In this document: positions 858 to 14,733 of the stretch, one piece after another | Layout of the letters: every line of letters begins with the position of its first letter | Numbering within the stretch: the first letter of the stretch is position 1 | Assembly: GCA_964247135.1 (NCBI GenBank) | Contig: CAXTTL010000120.1 | Coordinates: 1-14,733 of the forward strand | Length of the DNA stretch: 14,733 nucleotides | From: an uncultured Deinococcales bacterium | Lineage (GTDB): Bacteria > Deinococcota > Deinococci > Deinococcales > JAAFIG01 | Direction: 5' to 3' | Translations under genes and position numbers: made by a program | Notes under the pieces: generated by a model | The model's database searches: none | What the model was told of the DNA's origin: nothing | What the model saw: the letters and a program-made list of their open reading frames with translations, nothing else

Positions 858-920
858 CCCGAACAGTGTGAAACGTATTAAATGGTATTTATGTTCCGTC
901 CAGCACGGGATTCTCGAGCA

Positions 921-1424
921 CTATTTCGCTTCAGAATCGTCCAGCAATCCAGGAAAAACCTCGATCTCAATGAGGTTTCTTAAGACTTTGACGTAAGGCG
1001 CTTGCACTGGCACAAGGTAATCTTTGCCAAGTCTTTCAATCACCAGCAAATCTTGAATTCCAGTGTCCATCACGTCTTTCACCGTGCCAACCTCGAGCTT
1101 ATTTTGATCGATGACCTTGCACCCCACCAGATCATGGTAGTAAAAAGTGTCATCATCGAGCGGCAGTTCATCTGGGTGGGCGTAGAGCGCGAGTCCAATC
1201 AGTCTTGAAGCCAACTCCAAACTCGAGACTCCGACCAGTTGCAAAATGGGTGTGGTGTCGTGAAGCTCGAGTTTTTTGACCACAAACCAACCTCGGGTGG
1301 CGACATATACACGCGTCAGTTTGAGGATTTGATTTGGGTCATCAACCGCTCGGAGTTTAAATGCGCCCTTCAGGGCATGGGTTTGTCCGATCAAACCGAT
1401 TTTGATGAGTTCTTCTGGAATCAT
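921..1424 (-). CDS. rimM: 16S rRNA processing protein RimM
   Basis: N-terminal IGLIGQTHALKG and the PRC-barrel pattern FYYHDLVGCKV...GTVKDVMDTGIQDLLVI...LVP match RimM, and the gene lies downstream of rpsP-khpA. Start moved to ATG 1424 because the ORF-track extension to 1460 begins inside a terminator-like hairpin. Confidence 0.95.
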   Translation of the reverse strand: MIPEELIKIGLIGQTHALKGAFKLRAVDDPNQILKLTRVYVATRGWFVVKKLELHDTTPILQLVGVSSLELASRLIGLALYAHPDELPLDDDTFYYHDLVGCKVIDQNKLEVGTVKDVMDTGIQDLLVIERLGKDYLVPVQAPYVKVLRNLIEIEVFPGLLDDSEAK

Positions 1425-1445
1425 GGTTTCTCTCGTTCTAAACTG

Positions 1446-1470
1446 AAAAAGGCGAGCCAAGCCCGCCCTT
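1446..1470 (-). terminator. Intrinsic terminator-like hairpin between khpA and rimM
   Basis: The minus strand reads AAGGGCGGGC-TTG-GCTCGCCTTTTT(CAGTTT): a GC-rich stem with G-U pairs followed by a U-tract. Confidence 0.65.
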
Positions 1471-1487
1471 AAGTGTGAAAACCTGAT

Positions 1488-1763
1488 TTACTCGCCTTGT
1501 TGATCGTCGCTCGAGCTTGCTTCGGTGCGGCTCGAGCCGCCAGCGACATCCACTTGGACGCGCTCCCGAGGTCCGGCGGCGGCTCGGGCGACGGTGCGGA
1601 TGGCTTGAATCACGCGTCCGTTGCGTCCAATAATGCGTCCCTCTTCGCCTGGGGCGACATGAATCATGTAGGTGACTTCGCGTTCGCCACTCTGCTCGAC
1701 GCGAACGCTTTCGGGTTGGTCAACCACTTTTTTGGCAAGATATTCGATTAAATCTAAGGTCAT
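1488..1763 (-). CDS. khpA: KH-domain RNA-binding protein KhpA (UPF0109), 91 aa
   Basis: MTLDLIEYLAKKVVDQPESV...GRIIGRNGRVIQAIRT contains the KH GxxG motif. ATG at 1763 has a GGGAG RBS, and the gene sits in its conserved position between rpsP and rimM. The ORF-track start at 2036 overlaps rpsP and is spurious. Confidence 0.93.
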   Translation of the reverse strand: MTLDLIEYLAKKVVDQPESVRVEQSGEREVTYMIHVAPGEEGRIIGRNGRVIQAIRTVARAAAGPRERVQVDVAGGSSRTEASSSDDQQGE

Positions 1764-1799
1764 TGATGCTCCCAAGTTGCTTTGGTCATGGCACAGTTT

Positions 1800-1830
1800 A
1801 ACCCCTCGCCAGAGGTTCTGGCGAGGGGTT
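1800..1830. repeat. Perfect 14-bp inverted repeat (stem-loop) between rpsP and khpA
   Basis: AACCCCTCGCCAGA-GGT-TCTGGCGAGGGGTT. There is no good U-tract on the minus strand, so mRNA stabilisation or processing is more likely than strong termination. Confidence 0.8.
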
Positions 1831-1845
1831 CGGGTTTGAAGCGTT

Positions 1846-2100
1846 TTAAGCTTCTTTGCGGTACACGCCGGCTTGCTTGAGCAAACGACGTGCGGTGTCC
1901 GATGGTTGCGCCCCAACGCCCAACCAGTATTTGGCGCGGTCCACGTCCACGACCAGGAAGTTCTCGACTTTTTTACGGGGGTCGTAATGACCCAGGTTCT
2001 CGAGGTAACCACCATCGCGTTTTTGACGGGCGTCAACGACGACCAAACGGTAATGCGGGTTGTGGGTGTTGCCGTAACGCGAAAGACGAATCTTAACCAT
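1846..2100 (-). CDS. rpsP: 30S ribosomal protein S16
   Basis: [41 protein letters not shown]...[12 protein letters not shown] matches S16. GAGGAG RBS at 2108-2113. Confidence 0.98.
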
Positions 2101-2211
2101 TGTTGTTCTCCTCGAGGCGGGTATTAAGGGTCGAACACGTGCTCGAGATCGTGTTCGGTCTCGTTGTCCTTTGAGCCAGCAGCCATGCAACCTCAAGCTT
2201 CAACGGGCAGG

Positions 2212-2240
2212 AGTATAGCAGTTTCAGCCATCTCGAGCAA
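2212..2240 (-). promoter_or_regulatory. Sigma70-type promoter of the rpsP operon
   Basis: The minus strand reads TTGCTC (2240-2235), a 17-bp spacer ending in TGC, then TATACT (2217-2212). This gives a -35 plus an extended -10. Confidence 0.75.
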
Positions 2241-3732
2241 GGGATTCTGAACTTAATTGCTTTAAGGCAACTGGGATCAAGTCTGCAACTTCGGACGCCA
2301 GCAGTCCAAGGTCTTTGTCACCGGCGGCAAGATCACCCGCCAGCCCATGAAGGTACACCCCAAGTTGCGCAATCAGCTCGAGTGAGGTGTCCGTTGGCGC
2401 TTGGGCAATCAAAGCTGCCAGAACACCGGAGAGCACGTCGCCCATGCCGCCCGTTGCCATGCCAGGGTTGCCACTCGAGTTGACCCAAAGGTTCGAGCCT
2501 GCCACCACGCTTGGACCACCTTTCAGGACCACAACCGCTCGAGTGCGATTGGCAAGTTCTCGAGCGGCTTCGAGTGGATTTTTGGAAATCTCAGTGACAC
2601 CCGTCTCAAGCATTCGCGCCGCCTCGCCAGGGTGTGGCGTGATGATGACGCCAGGGTGCGATTCGGGTAGGTTCTGTAGGATTGGCATCAACCAAGGCTG
2701 CAAGGCGTCGGCATCAAGCACCAGCGGTTTCTCGAGCGAAAGGAGCAACTCGAGCAAATCGGGTTCGATTTTTCCGACGCCCATGCCAAACGCCAGTGCA
2801 TCAATGCGTTCAAACTTTAAAAACCCGAGTTCGGGGGCAGTCCAAGCTTTGATTGTGTGCCTTGTGGCTTCGACAGGCGCTTGAAGTCCCGCGTTGACGG
2901 GAGCGACCACCGTGACCAAACCCGCACCAGCCCGAAACGCACCTCGAGCCGCCAGCGCCGGAGCGCCTGGGTATTGTTCCAAGCCTCCGAGGATCAACAC
3001 GCGCCCCGATGTTCCTTTGTGGGCATCAATCGCTCGAGAGGTGATGGTTTTGGCAGCCTCTTTGAGTTTTGAAACCGCTGCCACTTCACCGATATGCTCG
3101 ATTAAAGCTGTTGGAATTCCAGGGTTGACCAATTCAATTTGACCTGCAATTTCTCGAGTTGGATTGAACAACAATGCGGGCTTAAAACCCGTAATGCTCA
3201 CGGTATGATCGGCAAGAACAACATCTTCGGTCATCATTTGAGGAAAGTCGGCAACCATGCCCGAGGGCAAATCCACCGCCCAAACCTTGCCCCGAGACAA
3301 ATTGATCTTCTGGACAATGCTGTGCTCGAGGATTCGCAGTGGTGGTCGAAATCCCACGCCCAAAAGCGCATCGACAATAATGTCTGCACTCTCGAGCGAT
3401 TGCAAGTGGTCTTCAATGGCAAACATCGGACAAAAGCTGATGGTGGCTCGAGCCAAAGATTTGAGAATCTCGCCGGCGTTCTCGAGTGGGACGTGTAAAA
3501 TCTTGACCTCAAAGCCGTACAGACAAAGCCACCTGGCACAAACAAAACCATCAGCCCCATTTAAGCCCTTGCCGCAGACCACCACCACGTGAGCGCCCGA
3601 CGGGAAATCACGTTTGATGGCATCGGCGACGGCTCGACCTGCGGCTTCGACCAAGACCTCGAGCGGAATTCCTGCATTGATTGCGGCGGTATCGGTGGCT
3701 TTGACGTTCTGAGAGCTGACAATAAACGGCAT
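2224..3732 (-). CDS. nnr: Bifunctional NAD(P)H-hydrate epimerase/dehydratase (YjeF/Nnr)
   Basis: YjeF_N motifs EAAG, GKGLNGADG, IVDALLGVG and AVDLPSG are present. Kinase-like dehydratase motifs HKGTSG, RAGAGLV, VLDADAL, TPHPGEAARM, LKG and GNPGMATGGMGDVLSG follow. Confidence 0.95.
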   Translation of the reverse strand: MPFIVSSQNVKATDTAAINAGIPLEVLVEAAGRAVADAIKRDFPSGAHVVVVCGKGLNGADGFVCARWLCLYGFEVKILHVPLENAGEILKSLARATISFCPMFAIEDHLQSLESADIIVDALLGVGFRPPLRILEHSIVQKINLSRGKVWAVDLPSGMVADFPQMMTEDVVLADHTVSITGFKPALLFNPTREIAGQIELVNPGIPTALIEHIGEVAAVSKLKEAAKTITSRAIDAHKGTSGRVLILGGLEQYPGAPALAARGAFRAGAGLVTVVAPVNAGLQAPVEATRHTIKAWTAPELGFLKFERIDALAFGMGVGKIEPDLLELLLSLEKPLVLDADALQPWLMPILQNLPESHPGVIITPHPGEAARMLETGVTEISKNPLEAARELANRTRAVVVLKGGPSVVAGSNLWVNSSGNPGMATGGMGDVLSGVLAALIAQAPTDTSLELIAQLGVYLHGLAGDLAAGDKDLGLLASEVADLIPVALKQLSSESLARDG

Positions 3733-3738
3733 GACCCG

Positions 3739-3744
3739 AGTCTA
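3739..3744 (-). promoter_or_regulatory. -10 box TAGACT 6 nt upstream of the nnr ATG (leaderless transcript signature)
   Basis: The minus strand reads TAGACT-CGGGTC-ATG, with no Shine-Dalgarno sequence. Confidence 0.65.
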
Positions 3745-4079
3745 AAAGATTTGGAACGAATTTGAAAAGCAATTCGAGGTGGGTATTGTCAAGATTTGAA
3801 CCGAACGCCATTTCATTTTGGACGCCGAAATCGTTTGAATGACCTGCAACCAAGCGGGTTTCGTGAAATCAAATCTGGCTTGTGAGCGTAAAGGTGCTTG
3901 TCACATTTACTGATCGCACAAACCAAACCGATCATCTGTGCCGTCCATCGATGTGATGCGCAAGAAGGTCGCACTGTTGGTTGGATATGACTCGAGATTT
4001 AAATCCTTGGCAATTGGCAGACGCGTGAAATCTATGCTCAAGGGCATTTACTCAATTTTTACCTGTCGGTTTGAGCGAC

Positions 4080-4976
4080 TCAGAATTCATTGTCAGCTTG
4101 CTTCGCAGGGCTTGTGCTTTCTCGAGTTGCCACGCCTTGCCGTTGCCTGTAGGTGATAGGTGACATCCCCGATGACTTAGAAAAGACTGCGTAAAACCTC
4201 GAAAGGCTCTGAAAGCCAGACTCGAAAGCCACGTCGAGCACGCTCAGGTCGCTGGTGATCAGCAGGCGCTCTGCGTGTGCCAGCCGGTGTTGGATCAAGA
4301 ATTTGTGCATGGTCAGACCAAAAACCTGTTTGAACAGGGTCATGGCGTAGTTTGGGTTCAGTCCAAGGTCTTGCGCGATGGTTTGGGCATTGATGGGTTC
4401 GGCGTGACGGGTGGCGATCACCTGCGCGAGCCGTTCGGCGCTGCTTCGCTGGGTGGCGTCAAGGGTTTCAGGAATCTTGATCGGGTCCTCGAGTTGCCAG
4501 AAACGGTGCAAAAAAGCTTCAACCTCGAGCATCGCGGCACGGTGTCGTTCGATGGGGTCGTGGCTGGCTGCGGGCACGCTCGAGCGTTGCAGCTCGGAAG
4601 CCCAACGTCGAAACAGTGCGCGGTCCAGGCTGGCGTCCTCGCCCTGTCGGGTCAGGGCTGTTCCGTGCAAGAGCGAGCTGCGCAAGCCGATTGGAACAGT
4701 CCAGCGCAAGAATTCGGTCAGGGGAACGTGCACCACACCAAGGATCGACTGCGGTGTGCAATCGATGATCCGGTGCGGCATGATCGCCCAGAACACCGCC
4801 ACCTCGCCGGCGCGAATGCTGAGCCTCGAGCCGCCCATCAGGTAGTGCAGTTCGCCGACTGAAACGAGGTTAAGTTCAATGTCGCTGTGCCGATGAAGCC
4901 GTTCGATCACCCAAGGCTCGCCGTACCAACCGAGCAAGCCTTGCGCTTGTATGTCGATGTCAACTTGGGGGGTCAC
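4080..4976 (-). CDS. AraC-family transcriptional regulator (MelR-like; cupin sensor plus double HTH), about 298 aa
   Basis: Cupin motifs HRHSDIELN...FWAIMPH and the C-terminal LNPNYAMTLFKQVFG...LSVLDVAFESGFQSLSRFYAVFSKSSGMSPITYR are present. Start placed at GTG 4976, 7 nt downstream of a TATCCT -10 box. Confidence 0.93.
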   Translation of the reverse strand: MTPQVDIDIQAQGLLGWYGEPWVIERLHRHSDIELNLVSVGELHYLMGGSRLSIRAGEVAVFWAIMPHRIIDCTPQSILGVVHVPLTEFLRWTVPIGLRSSLLHGTALTRQGEDASLDRALFRRWASELQRSSVPAASHDPIERHRAAMLEVEAFLHRFWQLEDPIKIPETLDATQRSSAERLAQVIATRHAEPINAQTIAQDLGLNPNYAMTLFKQVFGLTMHKFLIQHRLAHAERLLITSDLSVLDVAFESGFQSLSRFYAVFSKSSGMSPITYRQRQGVATRESTSPAKQADNEF

Positions 4977-4983
4977 AGACCTG

Positions 4984-5043
4984 AGGATACAAGAATTTTC
5001 CAGGGTGGAACGAAAAGACCCTTGTGCCTGGCTTTTGTACAAT
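4984..5043. promoter_or_regulatory. Divergent promoter region: minus-strand -10 TATCCT (4984-4989) and plus-strand -10 TACAAT (5038-5043)
   Basis: Two TANNNT boxes point away from each other. The plus-strand promoter has no recognisable -35, which fits activator dependence (inference). Confidence 0.55.
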
Positions 5044-5082
5044 GACCCATTCCAGCTCGAGCACCCAGAGGAGTCCGCCAAG

Positions 5083-5679
5083 GTGAGTTTCTTGTTTCAA
5101 GCCGAGCAGCGCATCGCCTTTTTGGGCGATGAACGCCTGAGCAATGCCAGTCCACCCGATGCCGTGACTTGCATCCTCGAACGCATCGCCGTGCGGTATC
5201 CCAGGCATGACCTGTCAAGCCTGAACCGCTGCACACCTGGTCTAAACCTGCAACGGGCGCTCGAGCAACCTGTGCCAAAAACGGATTGGGCGGTGATTGC
5301 GCTTGGAATGTACGACGGGCTGTGCGGAGCCGGATTGGCAGAATTCGAGCGGGATTACCGTCAACTGCTCGAGCGATTTGAAGGGCGCACCGTCGTCTGT
5401 GAACCGTGTGCGCTCGAGCCTCACCAGATCGCGCAACTCGAGCCGTACCGCGCCGTGGTCGAGGCGCTGGCGCTCGAGTTAAAACTGCCGTTCGCAGCCT
5501 TTCAACGCGCCCTGAACCGTGTTCTGCCCGCAACGCAACCCAGCGATTGGGGAACTGGCTCGACCCTCAACGCGGCGGGCAGTGCGCTGATCAGCGAGGA
5601 GTTCCTGGGCGCGGTGGGATTTGAAGTCTTCGAGGACGACGATGAACCCAAGCCGACGACACCCGAAGTCAAGGCTTAA
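5083..5679 (+). CDS. SGNH/GDSL hydrolase-like protein with degenerate catalytic blocks, about 198 aa
   Basis: GTG at 5083 follows a GAGGAG RBS (5068-5073). The block pattern is RIAFLGDE / NRCTPG / IALGMYD / F..DYRQLL / TLNAAGSALISEEFL. Confidence 0.72.
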   Translation: MSFLFQAEQRIAFLGDERLSNASPPDAVTCILERIAVRYPRHDLSSLNRCTPGLNLQRALEQPVPKTDWAVIALGMYDGLCGAGLAEFERDYRQLLERFEGRTVVCEPCALEPHQIAQLEPYRAVVEALALELKLPFAAFQRALNRVLPATQPSDWGTGSTLNAAGSALISEEFLGAVGFEVFEDDDEPKPTTPEVKA

Positions 5680-5738
5680 AAACCAGCTCCGCTTTACAGT
5701 GAAACACAAACGGTTTCTAACAGACATAGGAGGCACGT

Positions 5739-6581
5739 ATGACACCAACCATGAACCTGCCCGACCTCTCGAGCGAATACCCACTGAACCCCGAACACGT
5801 CCAGGGCTTCAAACGCGACGCTGTAACCCTGGTTCGTGGACTTGCCAGCCACAACGAGGTCGCGGCTTACCGGGGTTTCATCGACGGCGCGGTCGAACGC
5901 TTCAACCAGGAAACCCGCCCGCTCGAGGAACGCGACACCTACGGCATGGCTTTTTTGCAAACCATGAACCTCTGGACCCGCGACGAGGCGGTCAAACGCT
6001 TTTGTTTCGCCCGTCGCTTTGCCAAAGTCGCCGCCGAATTGATGGGCGTCTCGGGGGTGCGGATGTACCACGATCAAGCGCTGTTCAAAGAACCTGGTGG
6101 CGGCATCACACCCTGGCATCAGGACCAGCACTACTGGCCATTGGACACCGACCGCACCATCACGATGTGGATGCCGCTGGTGGACATCCCCGAGGAGGTT
6201 GGCACGCTGACCTTTGCACCCGGCTCACAGGTGCGCGGCTACCTCGGCGACCTGCCGATCAGCGAGCAATCTCAGAGCACCTTTGAGTCGTTTGTGCGCG
6301 AGAACGGGTGGATGCCGCGCACTTACGGTGCGATGAACGCCGGAGATGCCACGTTTCACAGCGGTTGGGTGCTTCACTGCGCTCCAGGCAATCCGTCAAA
6401 GACTTTCAGGCGCGAGGTCATGACGGTGATCTACATGGCTGAGGACACCCGTGTGACCACACCCGACCACAAAAACCGCGAGAACGACCTGGCGAGTTGG
6501 TTGCCTGGTTGTCGCCCCGGAGACTTGGCGGCGAGTCCGCTCAATCCAGTGTTGTACTCGAGCCGCTCAGACATCCGTTGA
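5739..6581 (+). CDS. Phytanoyl-CoA dioxygenase (PhyH) family Fe(II)/2-oxoglutarate oxygenase
   Basis: DQALFKEPGG...TPWHQD (HxD), ITMWMPL, GDATFH..WVLH (distal His) and N...RR are present. AGGAGG RBS at 5728-5733. Confidence 0.93.
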   Translation: MTPTMNLPDLSSEYPLNPEHVQGFKRDAVTLVRGLASHNEVAAYRGFIDGAVERFNQETRPLEERDTYGMAFLQTMNLWTRDEAVKRFCFARRFAKVAAELMGVSGVRMYHDQALFKEPGGGITPWHQDQHYWPLDTDRTITMWMPLVDIPEEVGTLTFAPGSQVRGYLGDLPISEQSQSTFESFVRENGWMPRTYGAMNAGDATFHSGWVLHCAPGNPSKTFRREVMTVIYMAEDTRVTTPDHKNRENDLASWLPGCRPGDLAASPLNPVLYSSRSDIR

Positions 6582-6710
6582 GGCATCAAGTGAGGGCAGG
6601 TTCATGATGCCAGCGGTGTGTACTGCAACAAGCCTCAACGCGGTTCAACGCCTCGAGCACTTCGTAACCAAGTTGGTCGATGTCCGACTTTCTGAAAAGG
6701 TTGGGCGCCG

Positions 6711-7550
6711 ATGCCGAGCAGACTGACGTTCAAACTGGCACTCATTCAGATGCGGGTCGAGGGCGGGCAACCAGACCAAAACCTGGCTCGAGCCATCGGT
6801 TTGATCGCCGCCGCCGCGATTTCGGGGGCGCAGGTGATCCTGCTTCCAGAGGCGTTTACGCTCGGCTGGACGCACCCGAGCGCCCTCGAGTTGGCAGAAG
6901 CAATCCCTCAGGGTTTGTCCTGTCGGGCGCTGATGGCTGCGGCAGTTCAGCACAACGTGTATATTTGCGCAGGTTTGATTGAGCGCAACGGGGAAACCAT
7001 CTTTAACTCGGCAGTCTTGATCGATCCGCAAGGTCAGGTCGTATTGTTGCACCGCAAACTGAACGAACTCGAGCTTGCCCATCATTTGTACGCGCAGGGG
7101 GATCGCCTCGGGGTGGTCAAAACGCCGCTGGGCACCTTTGGATTGATGATCTGCTCGGATGCGTTTGCGCCGACACAGGTCATCAGCCGTACCCTGGGCA
7201 TGATGGGCGCGGATGTGATCCTCTCGCCGTCGTCGTGGGCGGTTCCCGCCGAGCATGACAACAGCGATACCCCTTACGGGTCGCTGTGGCTCGAGCATTA
7301 CGGTGCGGTGGCACGGGATTTCAAAATCTGGATTGCAGGGGTCAGCAACGTCGGCTGGTTGAGGGCGGGACCGTGGTCGGGTCAGCAGTGTATCGGCTGC
7401 TCGATGGTCATTTCCCCGTCCGGTGAACCTGCCCTGATCGGGGCTTACGGCGTGGATGCCGAGGGAATCTTGTACGCGGACATCGAGCCGCTGGCGCGAC
7501 CCGCCCGAGGGACTGGGTGGGCGAACCTTCTGGAGTCCGAACATGACTAA
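6711..7550 (+). CDS. Carbon-nitrogen hydrolase (nitrilase/amidase superfamily)
   Basis: The Glu-Lys-Cys triad motifs LLPE, HRKL and GLMICSD are present, along with FNSAVLIDPQG and GADVIL.PSSW. Confidence 0.93.
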   Translation: MPSRLTFKLALIQMRVEGGQPDQNLARAIGLIAAAAISGAQVILLPEAFTLGWTHPSALELAEAIPQGLSCRALMAAAVQHNVYICAGLIERNGETIFNSAVLIDPQGQVVLLHRKLNELELAHHLYAQGDRLGVVKTPLGTFGLMICSDAFAPTQVISRTLGMMGADVILSPSSWAVPAEHDNSDTPYGSLWLEHYGAVARDFKIWIAGVSNVGWLRAGPWSGQQCIGCSMVISPSGEPALIGAYGVDAEGILYADIEPLARPARGTGWANLLESEHD

Positions 7551-8745
7551 CCACTTGGAAGACCTGCTCGAGTACAATCACAACCTCGAGGTCATCGATG
7601 CACACGAGCATTTCATCGGCGAACCAGCGCACCTGAAACGTTACCTGAGTTTCTACGACTTTTTCGCCTCGTACCTTCAGTGGGATTTGTACAGCGCCGG
7701 AATGCCCAAAGAACTCCTTTGGAATTACCCCAATGACGAGAACGAGTCGGTGAGTCACTTTAGCCAGATCGAACCGTACTGGCAATACGTCAAGCACGGT
7801 TCGTATGCCCGACCGATTCGCTTGGCGCTCAAGCATTTTTACGGACTCGAGGACTTGAACGCCGAAACGGTTCTGACCCTGGGACGGACAATGAACGCCA
7901 ACAATCAACCCGGGCGGTTTGATACGGTCTTCGACGAGGCAAAGATCAGGTTCATCCTCAACCAATCCCCAGACCATCCGTTTGACGATCCGCGCTTTAT
8001 TTACGGCATACCGATTGAATACCACACGGAAGAAAGTGTTGGGGCGTTGCTCAGTGCCAATCCCAATTTCCAACCCGAGGATTTGGTGGCAAGGCTCGAG
8101 CAGGGCATGTCCACGGCGGTCGGACTTGGGGCGCGTTCAGCCAAGGTGTTTTCGGTCTTTCTGATGCAAACCCCGAACCGCGACCGGGCGGCACAAGTGC
8201 TCGAGCATCTGCGCCGAGGAGAGGCGGTTGACCTCGCGCCGTTGCAGCATTATCTGTCCGACCAAACCATCGCCGCCTGCGGACGGTACGGGTTGGTCGC
8301 CACAGTCCATACGGGCGTCTGGACGGACCTGAACAAGCAAACGCCGATGCTGATCTTTCCGGTGGTCGAGCGACACCCAGATGTGATTTTCGATGTGTAC
8401 CACATGGGAATGCCGTTCGTGCGCGAGTGTGCCTTTCTGGGCAAGAGTTACCCGAACGTTCATTTGAACCTCTGCTGGAGCCACGCGGTCAGCGAGAGCA
8501 TGACCTTGCACGCGCTGGGCGAATGGCTCGATCTGGTGCCGGTCAACAAGATCAGCGGCTTCGGCGGCGACCTGATCACGCTGCCCGAGCACGTTTGGGG
8601 TCAGCTCCAGGTCGCCAAGGAAAACATCGCTCGGGCGCTGGCGCAGCGAATCGCTCGAGATCGTTTGGACCTCGAGGATGCCAAGCAGATCATGCGCTTG
8701 TGGTTGTTTGACAATCCGGCGCGGTTGTATAGGCTGCCGGTATAA
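7543..8745 (+). CDS. Metal-dependent amidohydrolase-superfamily protein (amidohydrolase_2 / uronate-isomerase-like), about 400 aa
   Basis: Motifs IDAHEH, VHTG, YHMG, YPNVHLN, FGGD and DNPARLY are present. ATG 7543 has a GGAG RBS and overlaps the upstream stop by 8 nt (ATGACTAA). Confidence 0.88.
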   Translation: MTNHLEDLLEYNHNLEVIDAHEHFIGEPAHLKRYLSFYDFFASYLQWDLYSAGMPKELLWNYPNDENESVSHFSQIEPYWQYVKHGSYARPIRLALKHFYGLEDLNAETVLTLGRTMNANNQPGRFDTVFDEAKIRFILNQSPDHPFDDPRFIYGIPIEYHTEESVGALLSANPNFQPEDLVARLEQGMSTAVGLGARSAKVFSVFLMQTPNRDRAAQVLEHLRRGEAVDLAPLQHYLSDQTIAACGRYGLVATVHTGVWTDLNKQTPMLIFPVVERHPDVIFDVYHMGMPFVRECAFLGKSYPNVHLNLCWSHAVSESMTLHALGEWLDLVPVNKISGFGGDLITLPEHVWGQLQVAKENIARALAQRIARDRLDLEDAKQIMRLWLFDNPARLYRLPV

Positions 8746-8951
8746 ACGCGCCATCAAAGCGAGGCACAGAGGTTTTTCAAGAGATCCGTCAGCCGCCGCG
8801 CCCAGATCGAGGGACTGGTTTACCCTCACTGTTATGCGCTCGAGTCACCGCGTTTGATCGCGCCCAGTACGGCTATGATGTCGCCACCTTAAAATCAGTT
8901 AGACTTCTGAGCATCAAGCTCAACTCGAGATTTCATTCGGAGGGATCACCA

Positions 8952-10592
8952 ATGTCTTATTCAATGCCAAAGCTGCCTCAAGAACCAGCACTCGAGCCTG
9001 GAACAGTGTACTTGATCGCCAGCGGAGATTCGCGTGACGCCGCCAACAAAACCTGCTGGGCGGCGCAACGCGAGATGGAACATAAACTCGAGGTGGCACT
9101 AAAAAACCTGGGTTGGAAACTCAAACGCGCCCACGAATACGACCCCGTTCTCGAACACGGTTTTATCTGGAATCAACGCCTGGGCATGGATATCTTCGCT
9201 AGAATCCCCAAAAACGCGCCGTTGATCGTCGCCGAAGCGGTCTGGCAATTCAGCCATCATGTGCTGGCGGGTTTGCGCGATCATCAGGGCAGCATTTTGA
9301 CCATTGCGAATTGGAGCGGACAATGGCCCGGCTTGGTTGGACTGCTCAACCTCGGCGGCGGTTTGACCAAAATGGGCGTGCCATTCTCGAGCCTGTGGTC
9401 CAAAGACTTTGACGACGATTTTTTCATGGCTGGTTTGACGCAGTTTCTAGGGACTGGAACGGTGCAGCACGACTTGTCACACGTGCGCAGACTCGAGGTT
9501 GTAAAGCTACCTCAGCCCGAACGTGACCTTGGAACGGCGTTGGCGCAACAACTCAAACGCGAGAAAGCCATCATTGGGGTCTTTGACGAGGGCTGCATGG
9601 GCATGTACAACGCCATCATCGACGATGAAATGCTGAACCCCTGCGGCATTTACAAGGAACGCCTGAGCCAATCGGCATTGGTTGCCGAAATGCAAACCGT
9701 CAGCGATCTCGAGGCGCAGGCAGCGAGGGATTGGCTCAACGCGCAAGGCATGAAATTCAACACGGGAACAAATCCAGAAACCGAACTGACCGATGCGCAA
9801 ATCCTCGAGCAACTGAAAATGTACATCGCCGCCGTGCGAATTGCCCACGACTTTTCGTGCGACGCGATAGGAATTCAATATCAACTGGGTTTAAAAGACA
9901 TGACGCCCGCCTCGGATTTGGTTGAGGGATTGCTGAACAACGTCATTCGTCCACCCTTGAAATCTCGAGACGGTGCGCTCGAGTTATACGCAGGACTTGC
10001 ACTGCCGCACTTTAATGAAGTCGATGAGGGCGCGGCGGTCGATGCGCTCGTGACGAACCGTATTTGGACGGCGATGGGTTTTGACCCCGCGACCACATTG
10101 CATGACGTCCGCTGGGGCGAAGAATTTAATGGGCAGTACGTTTGGGTGTTCCTGATTTCTGGCGCCGCGCCACCATCGCATTTTATTGGCGGTTATTCAG
10201 GAGCCTCGAGCGACCGTCAACCCGCCATGTACTTTCGTTTGGGCGGCGGTACTTTAAAGGGCGTTTCTAAACCTGGCGAACTCGTCTGGTCGAGGATTTT
10301 TGTCATGGATGGCGGCTTACACTGCGACATCGGTCGTGCCAGTGTGGTCGAATTGCCCGAAGCCGAAACAAGGCGCCGTTGGCAACTGACCACCCCAGAG
10401 TGGCCCATCATGCACGCCGTGCTTCACGGGGTCACTCGGGATCAATTGATGGCACGCCACAAAGCCAACCACATTCAGGTGGTGTACTGTCCGACCGAAG
10501 CAGATGCGGATAAAGCCTTGGCTGCCAAAGCGGCGATGCTCGAGGAGATGGGAATTGTGGTGCATGTGTGCGGGACGGTGAACGTTGGGTAG
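8952..10592 (+). CDS. L-fucose/D-arabinose isomerase-like protein (FucI/AraA fold)
   Basis: ANWSGQWPGLVGLLN, GCMGM and DAIGIQYQ are present. The putative Mn-ligand motifs FNEVD, LHDVRWG and KANH correspond to FucI TEND, FADVR and GANH. GGAGG RBS at 8939-8943. Confidence 0.85.
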   Translation: MSYSMPKLPQEPALEPGTVYLIASGDSRDAANKTCWAAQREMEHKLEVALKNLGWKLKRAHEYDPVLEHGFIWNQRLGMDIFARIPKNAPLIVAEAVWQFSHHVLAGLRDHQGSILTIANWSGQWPGLVGLLNLGGGLTKMGVPFSSLWSKDFDDDFFMAGLTQFLGTGTVQHDLSHVRRLEVVKLPQPERDLGTALAQQLKREKAIIGVFDEGCMGMYNAIIDDEMLNPCGIYKERLSQSALVAEMQTVSDLEAQAARDWLNAQGMKFNTGTNPETELTDAQILEQLKMYIAAVRIAHDFSCDAIGIQYQLGLKDMTPASDLVEGLLNNVIRPPLKSRDGALELYAGLALPHFNEVDEGAAVDALVTNRIWTAMGFDPATTLHDVRWGEEFNGQYVWVFLISGAAPPSHFIGGYSGASSDRQPAMYFRLGGGTLKGVSKPGELVWSRIFVMDGGLHCDIGRASVVELPEAETRRRWQLTTPEWPIMHAVLHGVTRDQLMARHKANHIQVVYCPTEADADKALAAKAAMLEEMGIVVHVCGTVNVG

Positions 10593-10621
10593 AGGTGACT
10601 CAAAATCGAACGAGGTCGTTC

Positions 10622-10860
10622 ATGGATTTGAATCCATCAAATGAATTGTATTTTGTGAATTGGGATGATTATGGCAAACGACATGTTGTTTACAGAATTC
10701 GAGTCGAGCAGGAACGCATTTATCCGAATTTTGGCGTGACGGAATTTGGTTTCAAGATCAGGACGTTTACCGCAATTATGTAAATGGTTTTGATCCCAGT
10801 GTTCAACGAATCAACAAAATTCAAGCACTCAAGATGATTGCAGAACTCGGGTCAACTTAA
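10622..10860 (+). pseudogene. Small (~79 aa) hypothetical gene split by an apparent single-base frameshift
   Basis: ATG 10622 with a GAGG RBS gives MDLNPSNELYFVNWDDYGKRHVVYRIRVEQERIY. The -1 frame continues SEFWRDGIWFQDQDVYRNYVNGFDPSVQRINKIQALKMIAELGST to TAA at 10858-10860 and has no upstream start of its own. Confidence 0.5.
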
Positions 10861-10880
10861 AACCCAATGCCTCGAGAATC

Positions 10881-10889
10881 TGATAGACT
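10881..10889 (+). promoter_or_regulatory. Extended -10 promoter (TG-A-TAGACT) of nurA-herA
   Basis: TGATAGACT lies about 40 nt upstream of the nurA GTG. Confidence 0.65.
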
Positions 10890-10892
10890 TCG

Positions 10893-10909
10893 TTACGCAT
10901 GAAACGTAA
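10893..10909. promoter_or_regulatory. 17-bp palindromic operator matching the Deinococcus radiation/desiccation response motif (RDRM, DdrO site)
   Basis: TTACG-CATGAAA-CGTAA has perfect 5-bp arms and a 7-bp spacer, fitting TT(A/C)(C/T)G-N7-C(A/G)(G/T)AA as recalled. It overlaps the predicted transcription start of DNA-repair genes. Confidence 0.72.
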
Positions 10910-10930
10910 AAAACCCTCAAGGGTCGCACA

Positions 10931-11983
10931 GTGAAACTCTCGCTCGAGCCTTGGATGCCCGAGTACGACACCAGCTTGCAAGAACAACCTGGGCTGACGC
11001 CATCACGTCCCGACGATGTGAATTTGTTCGTCGAAGGACTTGAGGCTTGGAATCCTGTTCAACCCGTGGCGGCTCGGGCGGCAGAGGTGGATTTTAAGCG
11101 GCTTTATTTTATCGATGGACGCCGACGAATCGAAGCCAAAGTCTACGGCGAGACGCTGGTTGACAATGAACCGCAAAGTGCGCCAGGCTTGCTTGGCACG
11201 TTCGCGGTTGGCTTGGTCGAGTCTTTTATGACCAATTCGCCAGCCAAGATCATCAGGGCAGAAATCTCGAGGGTTTTGGTTCTAAACCATCCCGATGGCG
11301 AGAATTTAATCATCAAAACCAGGGGTCATGAATACGGCGAATTAAAATACAACTTCGTGCAAATGAACGAGACCATCAACACCGACACCGCCCTGACCAC
11401 CCGTCTGCAATATTTAATGCGCAACGCCGAAGACGAACTCTCCTCGAGCCTCGAGCTTCAGGGTGCGCTTCTGATTCTCGACGGTCCACTTCAACGCCGC
11501 GCCCCAGACCGGGCGCTCGGTTACGTCAAAACCATTCACAACTTTTACGTGCCGCCACTCGAGCAACGCACCATCAGGCAACTTCAACGCGGTCAACGCA
11601 GCCCAATTTTTTCGATCAAAAGCGGACTCGAGCGTTACAGTTGGTACTTGCGCCTCGACGATACGCCCGATTATTACCAGCCGTTTGCGGGCATCGTCAG
11701 GCTCGAGGTCAGAAACGAACTCGGGCTGGCTTGGGCGCAAAAAATTGCAGACTGGACTTGCATCATGCTGCCCAAGTACGCCGCCAAAGGTTTCCGTGAC
11801 CCTCGGGCGCCGCAGCAACTGATGCCAATCGCCTTTCTCGAGGGTGAGCTTGGGCGGCGCATGGGTGATCTGGCAATCATTCGCCGCCGCATTCAAGCCT
11901 ATTTGCGCCAGGAACGAATTCGGCAAGAACCGCTCGGTTTTGTAAATGATGCAAAAATTGAAATTGATCGGGATTTTAATTAA
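10931..11983 (+). CDS. nurA: DNA double-strand break repair nuclease NurA
   Basis: Motifs FIDGRRRIEA, LMRNAE, LILDGPL, GYVKT, QRSPIF, RYSWYLRL, GIVRLE and DPRAPQQL.PI.FLE.ELGRRMG are present, and the gene is directly upstream of herA. Confidence 0.92.
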   Translation: MKLSLEPWMPEYDTSLQEQPGLTPSRPDDVNLFVEGLEAWNPVQPVAARAAEVDFKRLYFIDGRRRIEAKVYGETLVDNEPQSAPGLLGTFAVGLVESFMTNSPAKIIRAEISRVLVLNHPDGENLIIKTRGHEYGELKYNFVQMNETINTDTALTTRLQYLMRNAEDELSSSLELQGALLILDGPLQRRAPDRALGYVKTIHNFYVPPLEQRTIRQLQRGQRSPIFSIKSGLERYSWYLRLDDTPDYYQPFAGIVRLEVRNELGLAWAQKIADWTCIMLPKYAAKGFRDPRAPQQLMPIAFLEGELGRRMGDLAIIRRRIQAYLRQERIRQEPLGFVNDAKIEIDRDFN

Positions 11984-11984
11984 T

Positions 11985-12028
11985 ACTCGAGATTTGACCT
12001 TCGGCGTGATTAGAACAGAATCTCGAGT
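11985..12028. repeat. 10-bp inverted repeat built on two CTCGAG sites in the nurA-herA spacer
   Basis: ACTCGAGATT (11985-11994) and AATCTCGAGT (12019-12028) are separated by 24 nt. Confidence 0.6.
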
Positions 12029-12068
12029 CAAAAAAATTCAAAAACACGTTTAGAAAGACGAAAAAACC

Positions 12069-13871
12069 ATGACCGAAAAAATTGAACCCGTAGGAATCGT
12101 TTTGGGCACACGCGACGCCGCGCCGCTCGAGTTTTGGGTCGGCGTCAACGACGGGCAAATGCTGCAACTCGACGATATTGTGGTCATGAAAACCAAAAAG
12201 CCACTGACAGGCTCGAGTGACTTTATCAACTTTTACGGCGTGGTGGACAGCGTGCGCAAGCTTCACGAGGGCGTGCAATTTGATTCGGACACCAAACTGG
12301 CGCTCGAGGGGACGATTCCGGTCAACGTCTCTTACGCCGCGCACGTGATTGTCACGCGGGTTGACCCCGAAGAATTTATTCCACCGCACCCGGGCGACGA
12401 GGTGTATCACGCGCTGGGAATAGACCTCGAGATGGCGCTTTACCGTGACCGCATGGAAACCACGCTGCCGGCTGGGGTGCTGCGAAACGGTCAACCAGCC
12501 ATGCTCAACTTTGCGTTTTTGAACGGCGAGAATGGGGCGCACGTCAACATTTCTGGTGTCTCGGGTGTGGCGACCAAAACCAGTTACGCGCTGTTTTTGC
12601 TGTACAGCCTGTTCAACTCCGAAGCCCTCGGACTCGAGCGAGCCAATTCCAAAGCCCTGATTTTTAACGTCAAAGGGCAAGATTTGATGTTTCTCGATCA
12701 AGTCAACTCGAGATTCGCCGAAAAAGAGGGCAAAATCAGTACAGCTCGAGGGATCAAAACAGACCGTTATACGGCTTGCGGTTTGCCGATCATGCCGTTT
12801 CAGGACGTGCAGTTTCTCGCGCCGCCAGCCCCAGGTGAAGGTCGAACCATCACGCACAGCATCACGCAACGCAGCACGGGCGTCACGCCGTACCTTTGGA
12901 CGATACGGCAGTTTGCCGTCGAGCGCCTACTGCCGTACTGCTTTGCAGACCGTGACGCCAGCCTCAACTTGGGGTTTTTGATCGGGCAAATTGAGGACAA
13001 ACTCTTCAAACTCGGTGACTCGAGCGGCAATTACCCGTACTTGCTGGTCGACGATTTTGCCCCAGGCGACGATGCGACCGACTTGGGCATCGAATTCAAC
13101 ACGCTGGGCAAAGCCAAACTCGAGACGTTCGGGCAGTTGATTGCCTACCTCGAGTTTAAATTGATTGACCAAAACGACGGCGAGGGCGATCCGAAATGGG
13201 TTGGGCGGCAACCCGTCGGCACACGTCAAGCGTTTATTCGCCGTTTACGCGGCGTGGTCAAGCACCTCAACCCCTTGATTCGCGGCGATCTGGATGCTGG
13301 GCAGGCAGACCGTTACCGCGCCGATGTCATGCGTTCGCAACTGACGGTGGTGGACATTCACAGCCTTCACGCGCACGCGCAAATGTTTGTGGTCGGCGTG
13401 ATGCTCAAGCAACTGTTTGAAGAAAAAGAGCGCAAAGGGCAGAAACCGTATGTGTTCGTGGTGCTTGATGAGCTAAACAAATACGCCCCCAGGGAAGGGG
13501 AGAGTCCGATCAAAGATGTGCTTCTCGACATTGCCGAACGTGGGCGCAGCCTCGGGATTATTTTGATCGGAGCGCAACAAACCGCCTCCGAAGTCGAACG
13601 TCGCGTGGTCGCCAACGCCAGCATTCGCGTGGTTGGACGGCTCGACCCTGCCGAAGCCGAGCGCCCCGAATACCGTTTCTTACCAGGCGCATTTAGACTT
13701 CGCGCGAGCATCTTGCAACCAGGCACGATGATCGTGCAGCAACCCGAAGTGCCCAGTCCTGTCATGATCACGTTTCCGTTTCCAGCTTGGGCGACCCGTA
13801 AAGATGAGGTTTTAAAGGGAAGCTCGAGTTTTGAGGATGTGGTGAAAGAAGCCGAGGATTGGTTGACATAG
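12069..13871 (+). CDS. herA: HerA-family ATPase/helicase (HAS barrel plus FtsK/HerA ATPase)
   Basis: N-terminal HAS-barrel-like region (VGIVLGT...PLEFWV), variant Walker [24 protein letters not shown], Walker [12 protein letters not shown], and [15 protein letters not shown] are present. Confidence 0.94.
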
Positions 13872-13887
13872 TATATTAGGAGATTGA

Positions 13888-14703
13888 ATGACTAAAGACG
13901 ATTGGAAAGCATTGTTGGATTCGCCATTTGAACAAGAAATTCGTCGAATGCATAAACTTATATTTTATTCACGAGATGCAGTACCTCTTGTTTTTAACCT
14001 TATAATTGAAAGTAACAATAGTAACATTAATGAACTTGATTCAATGGTTGAAGAAAATTTTGTTAAACGAATTAAAAACGAAGAAGATCATAATCTTTAT
14101 CAAATTACTGACCAAAGTAAACGTATGAGTTTTAATAACCTTGCATCAAGTATTGAAATTCATAATCACGCACTTAAAACAATCCCAAGAAGCCTTTTTA
14201 TCACTTTAATTAGTGATTTTGATGTTTTTATTAGTAATTTAATTAAAATCATATTTTCTTCAAATCCCGGAGTATTAAATTCAAGAGACACTGCAATTCA
14301 GTATTCTGATTTAATTACTTTTGAAACTATGGAAGACGCTAAAAAATATATTATTGAAAAGCAGATTGATAATATACTAAGAGAAAATCATAAAAAACAA
14401 CTTGAATATCTCGAAAAAATAATCAACTGTAAAATTATTGAAAATATCCCATTTTGGAGCGAATTTATTGAAATTACTGAAAGAAGAAATCTATTGGTAC
14501 ACACTGATGGCTTTGTAAGTTCGCAATACAGAAAAAATTGTCTAGAAAATGGATTTAAAGATAATGAAATTCCCGAACTAAACTCACAAATAGATATTGA
14601 TTTAGACTATTTTGAAAAATCATGTAATATATTGTTTAAAATGGTGGTGTATGTTACACATATTACATGGAAGCAATTATTTAAAAAACAGACTACTTAT
14701 TAG
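13888..14703 (+). CDS. AT-rich hypothetical protein with a HEPN-type Rx4H motif (putative RNase)
   Basis: AGGAG RBS and a 16-nt gap after herA. The protein appears helical, with FITLISDFDVFISNL and E-RRNLLVH-TDG (RNLLVH at 14485-14502). GC is much lower than in the neighbouring genes and there is no CTCGAG. Confidence 0.7.
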   Translation: MTKDDWKALLDSPFEQEIRRMHKLIFYSRDAVPLVFNLIIESNNSNINELDSMVEENFVKRIKNEEDHNLYQITDQSKRMSFNNLASSIEIHNHALKTIPRSLFITLISDFDVFISNLIKIIFSSNPGVLNSRDTAIQYSDLITFETMEDAKKYIIEKQIDNILRENHKKQLEYLEKIINCKIIENIPFWSEFIEITERRNLLVHTDGFVSSQYRKNCLENGFKDNEIPELNSQIDIDLDYFEKSCNILFKMVVYVTHITWKQLFKKQTTY

Positions 14704-14717
14704 TCTGTTTTTTAAAT
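14679..14717. terminator. Bidirectional intrinsic terminator-like hairpin (17-bp perfect inverted repeat) overlapping the stop codon
   Basis: ATTTAAAAAACAGACTA-CTTAT-TAGTCTGTTTTTTAAAT, with A6 and T6 tracts on either side of the core stem. Confidence 0.75.
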
Positions 14718-14733
14718 TTCTTTACAAAAAGTC

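Follow-up and report, generated by a model that had tools for sequence, protein, structure and literature searches.

No function has been agreed upon for HIP1, a highly iterated palindrome (HIP), in the roughly three decades that it has been known. HIP1 (GCGATCGC) and the alternate HIPs are described, in the portions of the published accounts drawn on here, as short GC-rich palindromes that are 15- to 300-fold over-represented in cyanobacteria, occur in coding and non-coding DNA and are conserved beyond the background, the palindrome itself varying by lineage (Elhai 2015, PMC4390886; Xu, Lawrence and Durand 2018, PMC5861425). The same portions give a HIP1 density of 300–2,700 sites per Mb, with one-off variants being common and conserved (PMC4390886; PMC5861425), a cognate methyltransferase wherever a HIP is frequent (Elhai 2015, PMC4390886) and, as a hallmark of HIP1, a periodic distribution at 10–90 kb (Xu et al. 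2018, PMC5861425). The present analysis concerns the hexamer CTCGAG in a stretch of 14,733 nucleotides from an uncultured Deinococcales bacterium (assembly GCA_964247135.1, contig CAXTTL010000120.1), hereafter the window, and in the genome and relatives of that organism. In this lineage, CTCGAG was found to be a highly iterated palindrome in coding DNA, intergenic DNA, accessory genes and the DNA sampled by clustered regularly interspaced short palindromic repeats (CRISPR). Other short genomic motifs are also well described. Uptake signal sequences (USS) and DNA uptake sequences (DUS) are 9–12 nt long, non-palindromic, present about once per kb and rarer in foreign DNA, including islands and prophages. 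The Dcm/Vsr very-short-patch repair of Escherichia coli is associated with an excess of CCWGG well under 2-fold and a deficit of CTWGG, and Chi is asymmetric, co-oriented with replication, found once per several kb and tied to RecBCD or AddAB.

The genome carrying the window (G000, G-numbers denoting the genomes compared) was a 5,091,702-bp assembly of 386 contigs, the longest of 115 kb, with a GC content of 52.7%, a completeness of 84% and a contamination of 1.8%; the window is its contig C120. The family set comprised 19 genomes including G000, belonging to five genera with a sampled GC of 0.45–0.62, and a survey of the phylum covered 301 genomes, with the same-composition palindrome GAGCTC as a built-in control. 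Genes were called in G000 with a self-trained caller of open reading frames (ORFs), which yielded 4,751 genes (87.6% coding) and recovered the genes of the window except the end-truncated first ORF.

A total of 85 CTCGAG sites were found in the window, from position 913 to 13828, or approximately one per 152 bp. The first-pass annotation, made from the sequence by eye, had counted about 85 copies over the same interval and put the excess at about 20-fold; the count was exact and the excess reached 25-fold over composition genome-wide. In 200 dinucleotide-preserving shuffles of the window, the mean number of sites was 3.24 (standard deviation 1.75, maximum 10), and none of the 200 reached 85. 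Sites appeared in all three reading frames, as had been noted, with 47 written CTC-GAG (Leu-Glu), 12 xCT-CGA-Gxx and 16 xxC-TCG-AGx, and the particular frames assigned earlier were confirmed, namely xxC-TCG-AGx for sites 12212, 12707, 13019 and 13823, and xCT-CGA-Gxx for site 12745. The remaining ten sites were intergenic according to the gene calls made here (913, 2111, 2142, 3991, 6652, 8839, 8924, 10871, 11986 and 12022). Approximately eleven intergenic copies had been listed before, and these ten stood; the other, at 5056, falls within a GDSL-like ORF under the start chosen here, an assignment that depends on that start. Furthermore, herA (12069–13871, forward strand) contained 11 sites and all six of its Leu-Glu pairs were written CTCGAG, and nurA (10931–11983, forward strand) contained eight, with six of its seven Leu-Glu pairs written in this way, both as originally observed. 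These two genes were identified by matches to the HerA and NurA chains of PDB 7f6d (E-values of 1.8e−228 and 5.2e−23, respectively), neither product having a match in the Pfam search of the window proteins. The best solved relative of HerA, together with the layout of related genomes, places the lineage in the phylum to which the Thermus and Deinococcus relatives belong.

The enrichment was not confined to this contig. A total of 33,925 CTCGAG sites were found in the 5.09 Mb of G000, one per 150 bp, distributed over its 386 contigs, and the signal was present in 18 of the 18 other family assemblies. When hexamer ratios were computed genome-wide with Markov nulls, as the annotation had proposed, CTCGAG ranked highest of all hexamers at each of orders 0–3, with observed-to-expected ratios (O/E) of 24.7 for composition, 35.2 for dinucleotides, 14.4 for order 2 and 3.4 for order 3. 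At the maximal order of 4 the ratio was 1.24, because the pentamers already carry the signal (88% of CTCGA end in G). Altogether, CTCGAG accounted for 62% of the TCGA and 43% of the CTC occurrences in G000, and the palindromes next in over-representation were AT-rich and enriched 3.4- to 3.7-fold. The nine classes of one-mismatch variant had O/E values of 0.08–1.74 each, the lowest being the class that contains CTAG, and no depletion was observed for the deamination-type variants (1.17 for CTTGAG/CTCAAG and 1.74 for TTCGAG/CTCGAA). Nucleotide preferences around the sites were weak (39% of sites had G at −1 and 37% had A at −3, the opposite flank being the mirror image), and complementarity of the ±1 positions was 0.211 compared with 0.275 expected; therefore, no longer palindrome is involved, and a longer palindrome or hairpin function was rejected, flank complementarity being at or below expectation. 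The spacing of sites was near-Poisson (mean 148, median 108, coefficient of variation 0.96), with a deficit of neighbours at short range, the pair correlation being 0.3 at 7–12 bp and rising to about unity by ~60 bp. No two sites were spaced by exactly 6, because this would create GAGCTC. The longest CTCGAG-free gap in the assembly was 2,644 bp, the O/E was 22–25 across all GC classes of genes, and 11 of the 2,015 genes of at least 900 bp had no site (~1.2 expected by chance), three of the 11 having a GC content of 0.26–0.36.

The data support a force that acts on DNA and not on proteins or codons, as had been argued from the window. The density of sites was 6.59 per kb in coding and 7.16 per kb in intergenic DNA, and in the latter (GC 0.45) 4,519 sites were observed against 115 expected from dinucleotides, giving an O/E of 38. 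Genic sites were distributed as 18,535 in frame CTC-GAG, 6,648 in xxC-TCG-AGx and 4,243 in xCT-CGA-Gxx. When synonymous codons were shuffled within genes, 4,101 ± 52 sites were obtained compared with 29,353 observed (by frame, 3,222, 587 and 291, respectively), so that the two frames other than Leu-Glu stood 11- and 15-fold above the shuffle. The enrichment thus survived both the intergenic and the synonymous-codon nulls, a strictly dicodon-preserving null being circular for the CTC-GAG frame. Moreover, 18,487 of the 24,019 Leu-Glu pairs (77%) were written CTCGAG, compared with 4.9% predicted from codon usage outside that context. A visible side effect on the proteome was the excess of this dipeptide: Leu-Glu was the most over-represented of all (O/E 2.34; 24,019 vs. 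10,278 expected), with ~13,700 extra occurrences in G000, and Glu-Leu had an O/E of 1.01. Among relatives, in which dipeptides were compared on crudely called ORFs of at least 250 aa in samples of 4 to 106 thousand residues, the Leu-Glu excess tracked motif density, with values of 0.87–1.22 in non-enriched, 1.2–1.9 in intermediate and 2.0–2.5 in extreme genomes.

The retention of sites between congeners was analysed in 101 blocks aligned between G000 and G005 (252,675 columns, 85% nucleotide identity). A total of 1,424 sites were shared, 287 were private to G005 and 377 were private to G000. CTCGAG was identical in 1,424 of 1,695 cases (84%), ranking first among the 720 hexamers with at least 100 occurrences, for which the median was 49%. 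In alignable intergenic DNA, 167 of 206 CTCGAG were identical (81%) compared with 46% for other hexamers, and at conserved Leu-Glu positions CTCGAG was retained in 785 of 878 cases (89%) compared with 65 of 189 (34%) for the other Leu-Glu codon pairs; the retention of sites is not a protein effect. The likeness to a HIP that was first drawn from the window was therefore upheld, CTCGAG being a hyper-abundant palindrome in coding and non-coding DNA that is conserved between genomes. Opposite a private site, the other genome mostly differed by a single transition, and such transitions involved all of the three half-site positions; CTCGAG was lost at 0.25–0.34 of the background rate. Under a simple fixation-bias model, this loss rate would correspond to a scaled per-site coefficient of ~2.3–2.5; the logarithm of the 25- to 38-fold enrichment is 3.2–3.6, which may be taken as consistent with one weak advantage per site.

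Turnover was also evident. In a 17.3-kb triple alignment of G000, G005 and G004, sites were present in all three genomes at 67 positions, in two at 47 and in one at 39, and therefore gains and losses roughly balance. Likewise, in three blocks of the window alignable among six congeners, sites ranged from present in all to present in one, and a codon alignment of 20 herA orthologues indicated that the genera of the family gained sites at differing positions, often with amino-acid changes. Of the sites private to G000, 9.3% had a shared site within 50 bp and 20.6% had a G005-private site within that distance, compared with 14.5% under a uniform null (z ~3). This clustering fits diminishing returns with local turnover, to which rate heterogeneity may contribute. 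An origin of sites by 6-bp insertion footprints was rejected, as just 30 of 664 private sites faced a gap. Some differences involved several nucleotides, such as TTCAAT in five congeners vs. CTCGAG in G004, or, at window position 12745, CCAGGG in five congeners vs. CTCGAG in G000. In the polarised triple, single changes accounted for three of eight gains and 30 of 47 losses, a contrast that was not significant as evidence of one-step multi-nucleotide writing (Fisher P ~0.2, over long branches of ~15% divergence).

All 19 genomes of the family had 4.3–6.8 CTCGAG sites per kb. GAGCTC was counted 0–25 times in 16 of them, with none in G000, and 114–568 times in the other three. Across the 301 genomes of the phylum, where genus labels such as Thermus-like, Meiothermus-like or presumed Deinococcus are inferred names, the pattern was graded and patchy. 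The largest genus (100 genomes of high GC, presumably Deinococcus) had 0.01–0.2 sites per kb, and genus g9 (31 genomes of ~2.2 Mb and high GC, presumably Thermus) had similar levels of CTCGAG and GAGCTC, ~0.9 per kb, which is a plain codon effect, CTC and GAG being preferred codons. In two Thermus-like samples, 19 TCGA and 19 CTCGAG were counted in 20 kb of G022 (L021), and 21 and 13, respectively, in 16 kb of G026 (L022); TCGA is rare there and appears to be avoided outside the CTCGAG context. The Meiothermus-like genera reached 2–3.5 sites per kb, 4- to 40-fold over the control in most genomes checked, and several genera of f2, a family rich in metagenome-assembled genomes, reached 2–2.8 per kb. 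Beyond the family of the window, 7.0 sites per kb were counted in G253 (with 30 GAGCTC) and 3.6 per kb in G196. G197, which is placed in the genus of G253, has a herA 70% identical at the nucleotide level and a similar GC of ~0.5, yet its CTCGAG O/E was 1.0. Five genomes (G011, G009, G253, G196 and G197) were searched for the methyltransferase families PF07669, PF01555, PF00145, PF02384 and PF02086. In G197 (2.3 Mb in five contigs, 95% complete), no match was found in four of the DNA-methyltransferase families and one weak match in the fifth, and no palindrome avoidance was seen; in G253, the CTCGAG excess, palindrome avoidance and many methyltransferase matches were all present.

CRISPR arrays offered a sample of other DNA met by these cells. 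One repeat type, which itself contains CTCGAG, was common to seven of the 19 family genomes (at most three mismatches), and in G000 it formed an array of at least 17 repeats of 37 nt, each with CTCGAG (G000:C221:6962-8137 and G000:C9:61-168). A total of 90 unique spacers from five family genomes (3,127 nt) contained 22 CTCGAG, or 8.2 per kb (O/E 30), compared with 6.7 per kb in the host; 0.73 sites were expected at random and 17.8 at host density, and GAGCTC was absent from the spacers. Apart from the array itself, G000 matched only one of the 90 spacers over its full length, and therefore most of them target DNA absent from G000. The single match (35/37 nt) was at G000:C25:927-961, inside a 172-aa ORF of no known family and in a region where no clear phage genes were seen, and may represent a self-target or a mobile element resident in the genome. 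A search of IMG/VR with one 34-nt spacer gave no matches. The force or benefit does not seem to be confined to the chromosome, and active restriction at CTCGAG in the family hosts is unlikely, because the CRISPR-sampled DNA, in which the mobile elements of the family are probably represented, is rich in it.

Within the window, further features bear sites at varying density. An accessory block (3766–8888) of five genes, encoding an AraC-type regulator, a GDSL-like protein, a PhyH dioxygenase, a CN-hydrolase and an amidohydrolase, contained 28 sites (5.5 per kb). It was not found at the same locus in any of five congeners, the DNA search having matched the query parts 1–2868 and 7989–12972 only; in at least one of them, G004, the flanks of the block lay close together on one contig. 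Pairs of intergenic sites were located between the S16 gene and the NAD(P)HX epimerase/dehydratase gene (2111 and 2142; 2111–2147), upstream of a fucose-isomerase-like gene (8839 and 8924; 8839–8929) and in the 85-bp spacer between nurA and herA (11986 and 12022; 11986–12027). Both ends of the window were free of sites. The left flank (1–912) had none in 912 bp, with a probability of ~0.002 at the genome density, and includes a lipoprotein-like ORF cut by the contig end (3–797, reverse strand) with an ordinary GC of 0.48, a weak CarboxypepD_reg match and no CTCGAG in 795 bp. The right flank (13829–14733) lacked CTCGAG over the last 905 bp and is largely taken up by a 271-aa AT-rich ORF directly after herA (13888–14703, forward strand), with a GC of 0.27, no Pfam family and none of its three Leu-Glu pairs written CTCGAG; this ORF is probably recently acquired DNA that has yet to take on the signature. 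Elsewhere in the genome, a dispersed repeat of ~40–170 bp was noticed (G000:C1:31590-31790, L206 ~11590–11790), with dozens of copies per genome throughout the genus and a 40–45-nt core 98–100% identical between copies. The reference copy lacks CTCGAG and contains a short inverted repeat internally, and the element looks like a miniature inverted-repeat transposable element or a repetitive extragenic palindromic sequence.

Taken as a whole, the best reading of CTCGAG is that of a palindrome akin to the HIPs, maintained by a weak fixation bias at each site. Under a balance between mutation and fixation bias, each exact site would bring a small advantage (a scaled coefficient of ~2.5–3.6), which would drop when another site lies within ~50 bp, and one-mismatch variants would gain nothing. 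The sharp and symmetric specificity is what would be expected of a dimeric sequence-specific protein of the restriction-modification kind. Selection might then favour the sites as a dense cis-acting mark, with one to each short segment of DNA, and a putative reader or modifier would act on any DNA that lives in the cells, in a process such as recombination, repair or DNA acceptance. Such a factor may have been gained and lost among lineages, which would produce the patchy on/off pattern across the phylum. Selection for a dense mark with a putative reader or modifier, as proposed for HIP1 (PMC13756078; also the abstract of a bioRxiv preprint of 2024), is put forward tentatively, its probability being judged a little short of even.

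Several results weigh against this proposal. No reader or writer of CTCGAG was identified in the enzyme searches of the family; the XhoI nuclease family PF04555 was found in none of the 19 family genomes; no methyltransferase conserved across the family emerged among the three that were traced; and the complete genome G011 had no PF01555 enzyme. Since the gene calls in G000 were home-made, part of the DNA counted as intergenic may be coding. The spacers could come from the chromosomes of related strains rather than from phages, and fast-evolving segments that gather private sites in both genomes could account for part of the local coupling between gains and losses. Finally, a site-restoring repair bias predicts conservation and enrichment equally well, selection and bias being inseparable here.

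The search for a cognate enzyme covered 31 relatives. PF04555 was detected in one of the 12 relatives outside the family, G021, where the gene of an XhoI-family nuclease is convergent with that of a 340-aa SPPY-motif methyltransferase (G021:C1:73699-77256, L102), the sole XhoI-type system among the 31. This methyltransferase had homologues of 63% identity in G022 and G027 and no close homologue in the family, the best being a partial match of 43% in G006; the orphan XhoI/PaeR7I-like methyltransferase that the first-pass annotation had suggested looking for was thus not encountered in the family by this search. Of the three methyltransferases traced, C36 was present in five of the 18 other family genomes, a D12-class enzyme in six, and C189 at high identity in G000 only (0/18). 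In G000, where PF07669, PF01555, PF00145 and PF02384 were searched for, PF07669 (Eco57I-type, gamma) was represented by two MmeI-like enzymes and one 1,499-aa methyltransferase-helicase fusion only, and G011 had one C5 enzyme with a nuclease-like neighbour, two D12 enzymes, three HsdM-like enzymes and one type IIG-like enzyme.

Restriction systems were found in abundance. Most of the methyltransferases detected adjoined nucleases (NgoPII-, Eco29kI-, NotI-, HindVP-, EcoRII- or SacI-like). G000 harboured NgoPII-like (C14), Eco29kI-like (C178) and NotI-like nucleases, each with a methyltransferase, as well as the two MmeI-like enzymes, a type I system and a SacI-like nuclease with a D12-class methyltransferase (C320). 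Most other 6-bp palindromes were nearly absent from G000, including GAGCTC (0), GGGCCC (1), CGGCCG (3), AGGCCT (4), CGTACG (5) and GGATCC (7), followed by CCGCGG (11), CAGCTG (15) and CGATCG (47), and GGCC had an O/E of 0.02. Systems matching some of these sites were found, namely the NgoPII-like, Eco29kI-like and SacI-like ones; the restriction systems of G000 explain the avoided palindromes, GAGCTC included, and none of them explains CTCGAG. The pair of SacI-like nuclease and D12 methyltransferase appeared in six of the 19 family genomes by Pfam, and the absence of GAGCTC is probably not part of the CTCGAG mechanism, ordinary SacI-type restriction avoidance being sufficient. The D12-class gene itself (G000:C320:2119-2985) was observed to have an in-frame TGA in G000, which reflects either decay of the system or an assembly error, and was intact in four congeners and in G011.

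The strongest rival to selection for a dense mark is a bias of mismatch repair or gene conversion that brings the cell no benefit. A sequence-specific nicking or mismatch enzyme would resolve heteroduplexes toward CTCGAG, thereby protecting the sites already present and fixing errors that create new ones, as in Elhai's ratchet model for HIP1. Such a process would act on every replicon, and hence fits the uniform O/E, the site-laden accessory block and the spacers at host density; it predicts high retention and enrichment together, and a mobile enzyme gene would suit the on/off pattern among relatives, just as the congener differences, mostly single transitions at all three half-site positions, would suit repair. 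However, the Vsr endonuclease PF03852 was found in none of the 19 family genomes, no conserved candidate enzyme came out of the family searches, and no one-off variant was depleted, CTTGAG and TTCGAG included. The earlier suggestion of a methyltransferase- or Vsr-type repair driver accordingly receives no support from gene content as judged by these homology searches (0/19 for both PF04555 and Vsr, and no conserved methyltransferase among those traced); with G000 84% complete and the specificity of such enzymes not legible from sequence, a methyltransferase may have gone unrecognised. Moreover, there is no obvious reason for repair to disfavour sites within ~50 bp of each other, and protection alone, with losses at 0.25–0.34 of the background, gives just a 3- to 4-fold enrichment; therefore, a strong gain bias is also needed. 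This explanation is considered rather unlikely.

Bolder than the dense mark as favoured above is the notion that CTCGAG might be a 'password' of the lineage. It would be a dense palindromic self-acceptance signal, read by a machine of recombination, repair or defence that needs no cognate methyltransferase of the classical kind, and no chromosome, accessory gene, plasmid or even phage would persist without it; some 14,000 dipeptides would have been rewritten on its account, and its origin would be independent of HIP1. This notion is regarded as clearly unlikely. Another rival holds that CTCGAG is a protective pass or Chi-like signal, a nuclease or defence system of the lineage sparing, or attenuating on, DNA that is dense in CTCGAG and possibly modified, so that hosts and surviving mobile elements would be selected for it. 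In addition to the CRISPR-targeted DNA carrying CTCGAG at host density, a search of IMG/VR with a cluster of three sites matched predicted viral contigs with many CTCGAG and no GAGCTC, among the matches listed (at least 120, an arbitrary sample). Two pieces of one 110-kb contig (L363 and L327, GC 0.63–0.64) had 103 CTCGAG and no GAGCTC in 24 kb, and L266, L322 and L275, also among the matches listed, were alike in having many of the former and none of the latter. Furthermore, defence and restriction systems abound in the lineage, most other palindromes are avoided in it, and presumably foreign AT-rich genes lack sites, such as the ORF at 13888–14703 and the three genes with a GC of 0.26–0.36. 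Against this, the IMG/VR contigs had only two ORFs of at least 150 aa with any relative in G000 and their hosts were not assigned, no such system was identified, the known Chi sites have an asymmetry and a strand orientation that no palindrome can have, and a spacing of 150 bp is far denser than that of any known Chi. A pass signal is thus held to be very doubtful.

An uptake-sequence drive would have the competence machinery prefer fragments with CTCGAG and recombination spread the motif, as with the USS of Pasteurellaceae or the DUS of the Neisseria type. The Leu-Glu excess mirrors the proteome effect of uptake sequences, and ComEC is present in G000. A 2026 paper proposes, in the part of it drawn on here, that HIP1 is an uptake sequence (PMC13756078). 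However, ComEC was present in all five genomes tested, among them the non-enriched G197, and competence genes were rejected as a discriminator, ComEC occurring in enriched and non-enriched genomes alike. A 6-bp signal every 150 bp would also discriminate poorly, being ~8 times denser than USS or DUS as these are usually described, and presumed genera with a well-known transformable member (their names being inferred) show no enrichment. The suggestion of an uptake signal in the first-pass annotation is weakened by spacers that carry the motif at host density, although these may stem from chromosomes of related strains, and by an accessory block with 5.5 sites per kb, and it is now deemed highly improbable. 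As for an artefact of codon usage, protein motifs or assembly, a codon baseline accounts for ~2.5-fold in high-GC relatives (in g9, both palindromes are at ~0.9 per kb), but the intergenic O/E of 38, the two non-Leu-Glu frames 11- to 15-fold above the synonymous shuffle, the count of 33,925 CTCGAG to 0 GAGCTC in G000 and the agreement of 19 independent assemblies leave it practically no probability.

With selection for a dense cis-acting mark kept as the tentative preference, CTCGAG provides an independent instance of a HIP in another phylum, with a shorter palindrome, 2–20 times denser and with graded as well as on/off states among sequenced relatives. The pair of G253 and G197 is the clearest contrast, and the Meiothermus-like cultured genera are intermediate, so that one may ask, by comparison among relatives, which gene follows the motif. 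It is also a clear case of DNA-level pressure reshaping a proteome, the 2.3-fold excess of Leu-Glu scaling with motif density, and the password, if true, would be a second and genetically separate system in which to approach the HIP problem. On the practical side, the density of CTCGAG is a sharp marker for binning and classifying mostly uncultured genomes and flags recently acquired site-free DNA, and XhoI is predicted to cut unmodified DNA of these organisms into fragments of ~150 bp. No report of CTCGAG over-representation in bacteria was found in a literature search whose scope excludes supplements, where non-cyanobacterial HIP genomes might stand; the sole CTCGAG-enrichment paper that it returned concerned the honey bee.

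Compared with the systems described at the outset, CTCGAG shares three defining features with the HIPs, namely an excess of at least 15-fold for a palindrome, presence within and between genes, and conservation of the sites. In contrast to HIP1 as portrayed in the portions of the papers cited above, it occurs in another phylum, is a hexamer and not an octamer, reaches 4,300–7,000 sites per Mb compared with 300–2,700, has one-mismatch variants that are not enriched, and had no cognate methyltransferase detected by the family searches. Like USS and DUS, it is a short genome-wide motif that is tolerated in genes, skews peptides and accumulates by a weak per-site bias, and not because every position is essential; however, it is a 6-bp palindrome at ~6.7 per kb and is equally dense in CRISPR spacers. 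With the CCWGG of Dcm/Vsr it has in common a restriction-modification-type site made commoner by a directional process at the DNA level, but the enrichment is 25-fold, CTTGAG is not depleted and Vsr is found in 0/19 family genomes. The XhoI, PaeR7I and BsuMI systems recognize exactly the same palindromic hexamer, and one member of the phylum, G021, encodes an XhoI-family nuclease next to an SPPY-motif methyltransferase; unlike the target of such a system, for which restriction normally brings avoidance, CTCGAG abounds in a family without a detectable XhoI nuclease and in its spacers. Finally, CTCGAG resembles Chi, which marks DNA for a recombination or nuclease machine, in being a short over-represented chromosomal motif, but it is its own reverse complement, and so has no strand orientation, and recurs once every 150 bp.

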